From a virus (lineage: Duplodnaviria; Heunggongvirae; Uroviricota; Caudoviricetes), in the IMG/VR virus record IMGVR_UViG_2734482784_000002, positions 1 through 19,757 of that record: DNA of 19,757 nt; one strand, written 5' to 3'. Each line of letters begins with the position of its first letter. Position 1 is the stretch's first letter. The notes under the pieces were generated by a model that worked only from the letters and a program-made list of their open reading frames with translations, had not been told where the DNA came from and searched no databases. Position numbers and translations under genes: made by a program. Below are positions 1 through 820 of the stretch, in pieces.

Positions 1-654
1 ATGTACTCAATAAAAAAAGTAACCATGCTCTTGGGGTGCCTCGCCCTCACCTGCTCGATCGCATTTCAGGCGAGTGCAACTGAAAAATTCAAGGTCATTA
101 CAACATTTACCATCATCGCAGATATGGCCAAAAACGTGGCTGGAGATGCTGCAGAAGTCTCATCCATAACCAAGCCCGGTGCAGAAATTCATGAGTATCA
201 GCCTACCCCTGGCGATATTAAACGTGCGCAGGGGGCACAACTGATTCTCGCCAATGGTATGAATCTGGAATTGTGGTTCCAACGCTTTTACCAGCATCTT
301 AATGGGGTTCCAGAAGTAATTGTCTCTTCGGGTGTGACGCCAGTAGGGATCACTGAAGGCCCCTATGAGGGCAAACCTAACCCCCATGCCTGGATGTCGC
401 CAGATAATGCTCTGATTTACGTCGATAATATTCGTGATGCGTTGATAAAATACGATCCGGCAAATGCACAAACCTACCAACGTAATGCCGATACTTATAA
501 AGCCAAGATTACCCAAACCCTTGCCCCCCTGCGTAAGCAGATTGCTGAACTCCCTGAGAATCAGCGATGGATGGTCACCAGTGAAGGGGCTTTTTCTTAT
601 CTCGCACGCGATTTGGGGCTAAAAGAGCTTTATCTGTGGCCGATTAATGCCGAT
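1..654 (+). pseudogene. sitA: Truncated periplasmic Mn/Fe-binding protein SitA (N-terminal ~218 codons only)
   Basis: ORF 1..732 begins MYSIKKVTMLLGCLALTCSIAFQASA with a lipoprotein-type signal and the HAWMSP and SEGAFSYL motifs of TroA/SitA-family metal-binding proteins. The family resemblance stops after ...LWPINAD (nt ~654); the remaining 25 codons are antisense of a J-like phage gene. Full-length homologs are ~300 aa as recalled. Confidence 0.7.
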
Positions 655-655
655 C

Positions 656-820
656 ACTGTCCAGCACCGGCGTACTGTTCAGCAGCACGCTTTTTAATCC
701 GTCCACCGGACCTTCAATCGGCCCTTCGCTGATGGCGTCTATCACGCTCAGCATCTGGGATGATTTCAGGTTGTCCTTCGCTTCGCGCGGGGTATGCCCC
801 TTACTGCTGCCTTTACCCAT
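656..820 (-). pseudogene. 5' remnant of lambda J-like tail tip/host-specificity gene (~55 codons)
   Basis: Minus-strand translation from ATG at 820: MGKGSSKGHTPREAKDNLKSSQMLSVIDAISEGPIEGPVDGLKSVLLNSTPVLDS, near-identical to the recalled lambda J N-terminus. It stops after 3 more codons (DRH*) where the sequence becomes sitA antisense. Below the 60-aa cutoff of the ORF track. Confidence 0.7.

Follow-up and report, generated by a model that had tools for sequence, protein, structure and literature searches.

Rac-type prophages, the sit island and the locus under study

Shigella flexneri and Escherichia coli have the sitABCD operon on the sit island ("PAI sit"), in phage-derived, deletion-prone DNA. 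A review describes this island as unstable, with many rearrangements and deletions, citing Fisher et al. 2009, and holds homologous recombination and insertion sequences (ISs) responsible (PMC7545054). We have analyzed a 19,757-nucleotide (nt) stretch of viral DNA (IMG/VR record IMGVR_UViG_2734482784_000002, positions 1 to 19,757; hereafter the window) in which the same operon, again within phage-derived DNA, has been reduced to a truncated sitA gene joined to the start of a lambda-J-type tail-tip gene. Unlike the rearrangements described in the review, this junction involves 3 nt of homology and no IS. The EC958 genome paper contains nothing on sit.

The element in the window shares with the Rac prophage of E. 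coli K-12 intR, recE, recT, sieB, trkG, ynaK and lysis genes and, probably, the ttcA integration site and the attachment (att) core, and both are deletion-riddled remnants that lack a full virion module. K-12 Rac is not known to have sit genes and keeps remnants of tmpR, lomR, stfR and tfaR. The window keeps the capsid-to-tail-tube genes and a sitA stub, a set of deletions unlike that of K-12 Rac. Microhomology-mediated illegitimate recombination, or alternative end-joining, produces large deletions in E. coli with 1-4-nt overlaps and no filler. The scar in the window would fit this type, although it is the scar alone that is seen, and the enzymes and the initiating lesion are not inferable from sequence.

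The window is very probably a Rac-type (ttcA-integrated) prophage remnant from one E. coli clone, reduced from ~55 kb to 19.8 kb. With high confidence, we explain its left end by one illegitimate recombination at the trinucleotide TCA, which would have cut out of this remnant the ~11 kb that separated sitA nt 656 from gpJ nt 167.

The junction between sitA and the J-type gene

The window was compared by BLAST with E. coli 13P484A (NZ_CP019280.1; locus L002), where the region is intact. The gene order in 13P484A is nifJ, ompN and uspF, then sitA, sitB, sitC and sitD. Convergent with sit are a tail-fibre assembly remnant, tail-fibre genes, lom, gpJ and the gene for an I-type tail assembly protein, continuing with C40 peptidase (K type), L-type, M-type and tape measure genes. 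Beyond the tape measure gene lie ydaY, a tail tube gene, a terminator-like gene, three hypothetical genes and a capsid gene. The left end of the window is made up of three blocks colinear with this locus:

Window 1-656: sitA nt 1-656 (L002 23945-23290), 100% identical (656/656)
Window 654-1248: minus strand; gpJ nt 1-167 with the I/J spacer and the 3'-terminal 368 nt of the I-type gene, 99.66% identical (595 nt)
Window 1247-2600: the tail tube gene, short of its final 64 nt, and the sequence beyond it, 100% identical

This comparison confirmed the original prediction, made from the letters of the window, that a truncated sitA is joined to the 5' stub of a J-like gene and that the two are convergent. 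The sitA match stops at 656 and the J match at 654; the prediction had the two ends interchanged, an inconsequential difference of 2 nt. Hundreds of complete E. coli genomes likewise have an annotated sitA that matches window 1-656 at 100% identity. The junction itself reads as follows, with the parental sequences aligned in three lines:

654..656, no strand: deletion junction 1; TCA common to the two parents; 10,995 bp shorter than in 13P484A
Left parent: ...AATGCCGATCA, then ACAAGG
Right parent: ...TTCCCCTCA, then CTGTCC
Window: ...AATGCCGATCACTGTCC

The missing 10,995 bp comprise gpJ from nt 168, lom, two tail-fibre genes, the tail-fibre assembly remnant, sitD, sitC, sitB and sitA nt 657-915 (its 3' 259 nt). 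One such interval, in a colinear alignment to a genome with intact sitABCD, suffices for the predicted single deletion of the 3' part of sitA, sitBCD, most of J and the tail-fibre genes. The predicted microhomology is present at the breakpoint, although its extent is 3 nt (654-656) rather than the ~8 nt proposed for 649..656. Exact homology common to both parents is limited to TCA, and positions 647-656 agree at 7 of 10 positions.

The parental alignment contains no filler bases and no IS ends at this junction. IS-mediated deletion was rejected, as parental sequence abuts on both sides without IS ends, and so was homologous recombination between repeats, for which the parents share 3 nt, or 7 of 10 with mismatches. 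Inversion was rejected on the colinearity of both flanks with 13P484A. A promoter and terminator scan of window 500-1000 returned nothing relevant to the junction.

13P484A is a close relative and a fair stand-in for the ancestor. In the chromosomal flank, 4 mismatches in 4,056 bp separate it from contigs carrying the junction (99.9% identical), its prophage is 99.96% identical to window 1247-5925, and the matched late-gene and sit segments across window 1-5925 are 99.66-100% identical.

A single deletion is the most economical reading of the junction. We observe directly where the breakpoints lie, what a close relative has in the missing interval and that IS sequence is lacking, as well as the reproducibility of the junction across assemblies and its clonal inheritance (below); we infer one event, its molecular mechanism and its neutrality. 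A single illegitimate recombination at the TCA microhomology, with no IS involved, could have taken place by replication slippage or copy-choice, or by end-joining of a resected double-strand break. Such an event would account for the loss of sitBCD and the C-terminal lobe of SitA, together with lom, the fibre genes and almost the whole of J. The chromosomal sit locus would then be dead and the prophage tailless and non-inducible, a state vertically inherited in the clone. Fixation may have come about by drift or by weak selection against a costly prophage.

Several points weigh against this reading. An overlap of 3 nt is expected by chance at ~5% of random junctions, as calculated analytically and from 200,000 pairs of breakpoints drawn at random in the prophage of 13P484A, so that, taken alone, the overlap is within chance and only weakly above it. 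Because the fibre region of 13P484A is itself partly decayed, with partial fibre and tfa genes, the ancestral deleted length is uncertain and may differ from 10,995 bp. No intermediate with only this deletion occurs among 5,426 complete E. coli genomes; one event is therefore not separable from nested ones, nor can the scars be placed in order. Finally, 1,060 of the 2,743 sit places in the complete genomes lie on plasmids. Carrier strains may thus hold a plasmid-borne sit copy, and the loss of Sit concerns this locus rather than the strain.

The att sites indicate whether the deletion struck a chromosomal operon or part of the prophage. The Rac att core is an imperfect 26-bp repeat, of which 13P484A has two copies:

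attL-side copy: TTGTTCAGGTTGTATATCTCTTTCTT, at the 5' end of ttcA, adjoining intR
attR-side copy: TTGTTCAGGTTGTATTGTTCTTTCTT, 360 bp upstream of sitA, between sitA and uspF

The attR copy was also found 360 bp upstream of sitA in six of the six carrier loci checked (L003-L008). In carriers this test covers the attR side, since the window stops at the intR stop codon; attL was seen in 13P484A. Rac is known to integrate into ttcA with imperfect att sites (PMC4632033), and the layout found here agrees. With att copies in ttcA and upstream of sitA, sitABCD therefore lies inside the prophage and the deletion is internal to it. The operon is prophage cargo, located between the tail-fibre genes and attR and convergent with the tail genes. 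The original prediction of a metal-uptake operon hit by a prophage-associated rearrangement thus stands as to the deletion; it does not stand in so far as it set a prophage against a neighbouring chromosomal operon. A second transporter gene of Rac cargo, the potassium transporter gene trkG, is intact at window 6482-7957, beside the lysis genes; the remnant has kept the transporter cargo trkG and lost the transporter cargo sit.

The features on either side of the junction are the following:

1..656, plus strand: 5' part of sitA; codons 1-218 and 2 further nt (304 codons in the full gene), signal peptide included
1..732, plus strand: chimeric open reading frame (ORF) SitA' (243 amino acids, aa); 218 native residues and a 25-aa tail, HCPAPAYCSAARFLIRPPDLQSALR
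644-820, minus strand: called J' ORF (58 aa); starts MGKGSSKGHTPREAKDNLK..., last three codons foreign
654..820, minus strand: J stub; first 167 nt of the lambda-J-type tail-tip gene, 55 native codons, equal to the start of gpJ (L002 12131-12297)
821..880, minus strand: native I/J intergenic spacer, with a G+C-rich hairpin at 843-862, AAACCGCC-CGCA-GGCGGTTT, read from the sequence
881..1248, minus strand: 3' end of the lambda-I-type tail assembly gene; 368 nt, native stop at 881-883, equal to L002 11703-12070

The 25-aa tail of SitA' is read from the antisense strand of the J stub. Over its retained part the gene is identical to sitA, and the product has lost the complete two-lobed ZnuA domain: the Pfam ZnuA profile (PF01297) matches SitA' at profile positions 1-199 of 263, versus 1-262 in the intact 304-aa SitA of 13P484A. 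Comparison with the sitBCD-containing 13P484A revealed no sitBCD match anywhere in the window, so that no sitABCD operon is left there, and no other sit copy was found in the window or in the 10 kb of upstream chromosome (ydbH-ldhA-hslJ-nifJ-ompN-uspF) of carrier contigs. An intact, contiguous sitABCD, named beforehand as evidence against the deletion, is accordingly absent from this region. The region upstream is 99.7% identical in carrier contigs, so that SitA' has probably kept its native promoter.

The start of ORF 644-820, MGKGSSKGHTPREAKDNLK, is the N-terminus of lambda-J-type tail-tip proteins, and the 58-aa product is labelled "Host specificity protein J" in its sources. A full-length gpJ/TipJ has about 1,160 aa (a 3,480-nt gene in the reference), of which only nt 1-167 are kept; the J' product is too short and gave no Pfam match. 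The I/J spacer falls inside the 99.66% match to 13P484A and was therefore inherited, not made by the deletion; its hairpin was not flagged by a simple terminator scan. In the intact I-type protein of the reference, the match to Pfam Lambda_tail_I falls in the N-terminal part, and this part is missing from the window.

Occurrence of the junction and deletions in other lineages

The exact 243-aa SitA' is present in 76 collection blocks and on 46 contigs, under the name "SitA [Escherichia coli]". J' is present on 52 contigs, and a 421-aa fusion of the tail tube protein with gpI, made by a second junction described below, on 45 contigs and in 73 collection blocks. Contigs with SitA', J' and the fusion are all labelled E. 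coli by their sources, and SitA' carriers come from NCBI isolates, ENA metagenomes and Logan runs. The loci that we fetched come from NCBI (five assemblies), ENA (two metagenome assemblies) and Logan (several run assemblies). A 121-nt string across junction 1 was base-for-base identical in 12 of 13 fetched loci, and the thirteenth ends before the junction.

In contrast, junctions 1 and 2 have no record among the 5,426 complete RefSeq E. coli genomes (megablast with window 1-2400 and 1-1240), none of which continues past position 656 into the rest of the window, and an exact 44-mer across junction 1 has no match in GTDB species-representative genomes. This absence would be expected if the junction were an assembly artefact, two contigs wrongly joined at a short repeat. 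The GTDB negative is uninformative on this point because the lineage is not a species representative. A 3-nt repeat is unable to mislead an assembler, and SitA' recurs on its 46 contigs, the longest of 4.59 Mb, in independent NCBI, ENA and Logan assemblies of separate runs, with an identical junction string. The chance of an artefact is therefore negligible, and misassembly, which the original prediction had named as grounds for withdrawing it, is answered by the many independent assemblies.

The carriers differ by 0-6 single-nucleotide polymorphisms (SNPs) in 10 kb of flank, and thus represent one clone that is beginning to diversify. In some carriers (L003 and L007, ~14294-14318; window ~4408), a 1-base indel splits the P22-type major capsid gene into ORFs of 108 aa and 278 aa, further decay that came after the deletions.

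Among the 5,426 complete genomes, 2,384 contain sit sequence, of which 2,337 have at least 80% of the operon and 47 have partial sequence only. Strain 127 of E. coli (NZ_CP023377.1) shows a comparable loss at this locus, in a prophage whose backbone is nearly identical to that of the window. There (L001 3689-4559), an IS1A lies at sitB, which is cut after 162 nt; sitA is intact, and sitCD is gone along with the fibre genes, J and all tail genes as far as ydaY. Both elements have thus lost sitBCD sequence and tail genes. The breakpoints of strain 127 differ, however, and IS1 stands at its junction, so that its loss occurred by a different mechanism as an independent event. E. coli B REL606, E. 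coli C and AH65 have different deletions between ynaK and the DUF6651 gene.

Strain 127 demonstrates that IS1-linked truncation of sitB with loss up to ydaY does occur at this locus, and the element in the window bears at least three separate scars. Both observations are in keeping with stepwise decay by two or more nested deletions, for example IS-mediated loss of sitBCD and then a deletion that removed the IS together with the tail genes. We consider such a history improbable: positions 654-656 hold no IS remnant or filler, an intermediate was not found among the complete genomes, and one event is enough.

The scar, read as a single deletion, is an ordinary one in a decaying prophage. Public E. 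coli genomes already contain the feature in annotated form, and its type has long been described for the sit island. It provides a clean lineage marker for one E. coli clone and a further case of cargo genes lost along with phage structural genes during prophage decay. It also illustrates how sitA-positive gene-presence calls can be false positives for a working Sit, as 72% of sitA is left here and sitBCD is gone. Beyond such bookkeeping it is of little importance, and it opens no unresolved question.

Further junctions and gene content of the prophage

Two more deletion junctions lie in the window, one of which creates the fusion ORF:

1247..1248, no strand: deletion junction 2; AT in both parents; 6,262 bp missing relative to 13P484A
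881..2146, minus strand: in-frame fusion ORF of 421 aa; tail tube protein and the C-terminal 122 residues of gpI
5924..5925, no strand: deletion junction 3; TA in both parents; 6,538 bp missing relative to 13P484A

Lost at junction 2 are the last 64 nt of the tail tube gene, ydaY, the tape measure gene, the genes of M, L and K type and the 5' portion of I. Lost at junction 3 are the 3' part of ynaK, two hypothetical genes, the small and large terminase genes, a portal-like DUF4055 gene and a minor head gene, as well as the 69 nt with which the DUF6651 gene starts. The overlaps at the three junctions sum to 7 nt, which has a chance probability of ~0.015 and lends modest support to the use of microhomology.

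One complex event may be envisaged as the origin of junctions 1 and 2, and perhaps 3, such as multi-break repair during abortive induction in which the 595-bp I'-J' fragment was kept. Each of the 12 fetched loci that extend across both has junction 1 as well as junction 2, and their fusion proteins occur in near-equal numbers (46 versus 45 contigs, 76 versus 73 blocks). Only 595 bp are kept between them, and all three junctions have 2-3-nt overlaps. However, co-occurrence is equally expected under clonal inheritance of successive events, given no more than 6 SNPs per 10 kb, and other lineages commonly have independent single deletions within these intervals. We consider a complex event very unlikely. 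We see an equally slim chance that SitA' is perhaps expressed as a periplasmic N-lobe with a new 25-aa tail and retained or new activity, or that the three scars are one catastrophic repair in a failed prophage induction.

In the fusion ORF, the Phage_tube_2 (PF18906) domain is complete at residues 4-293. The tail tube gene is annotated as "frameshifted" in 13P484A (L002 4543-5506) and strain 127 (L001 5593-6556), despite the complete domain in the window's copy; the call may be confined to the very 3' end, or apply to a C-terminal extension that runs toward ydaY. The ynaK-like ParB_N ORF (5721-6344) crosses junction 3 into a foreign frame.

The window is limited by the sitA ATG at one end and the stop codon of the Rac-type integrase gene intR at the other, and the element measures ~19.8 kb in the window versus ~55 kb in 13P484A. 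The genes that mark a Rac-type prophage (intR, recE, recT, sieB, trkG and ynaK) are all present, as are genes for a CI-like repressor, a YbcO-family protein, a DUF1133 (Q-like) protein, a holin, a lysozyme and spanins. Pfam matches include Phage_integrase with Arm-DNA-bind_2, Exonuc_VIII, RecT, SieB, TrkH and ParB_N, and the assignment is also backed by DNA matches to annotated Rac-type prophage.

Compared with 13P484A, the early and immunity region (window 10388-12382) is a mosaic: identity is only 92% across window 10382-11253, and nothing in 13P484A matches 11253-12382. Between the Cro-like and DUF1133 (Q-like) genes, the window has only the YbcO-family gene; the same interval in 13P484A holds replication genes, IS1, IS30, a restriction endonuclease gene and hokD.
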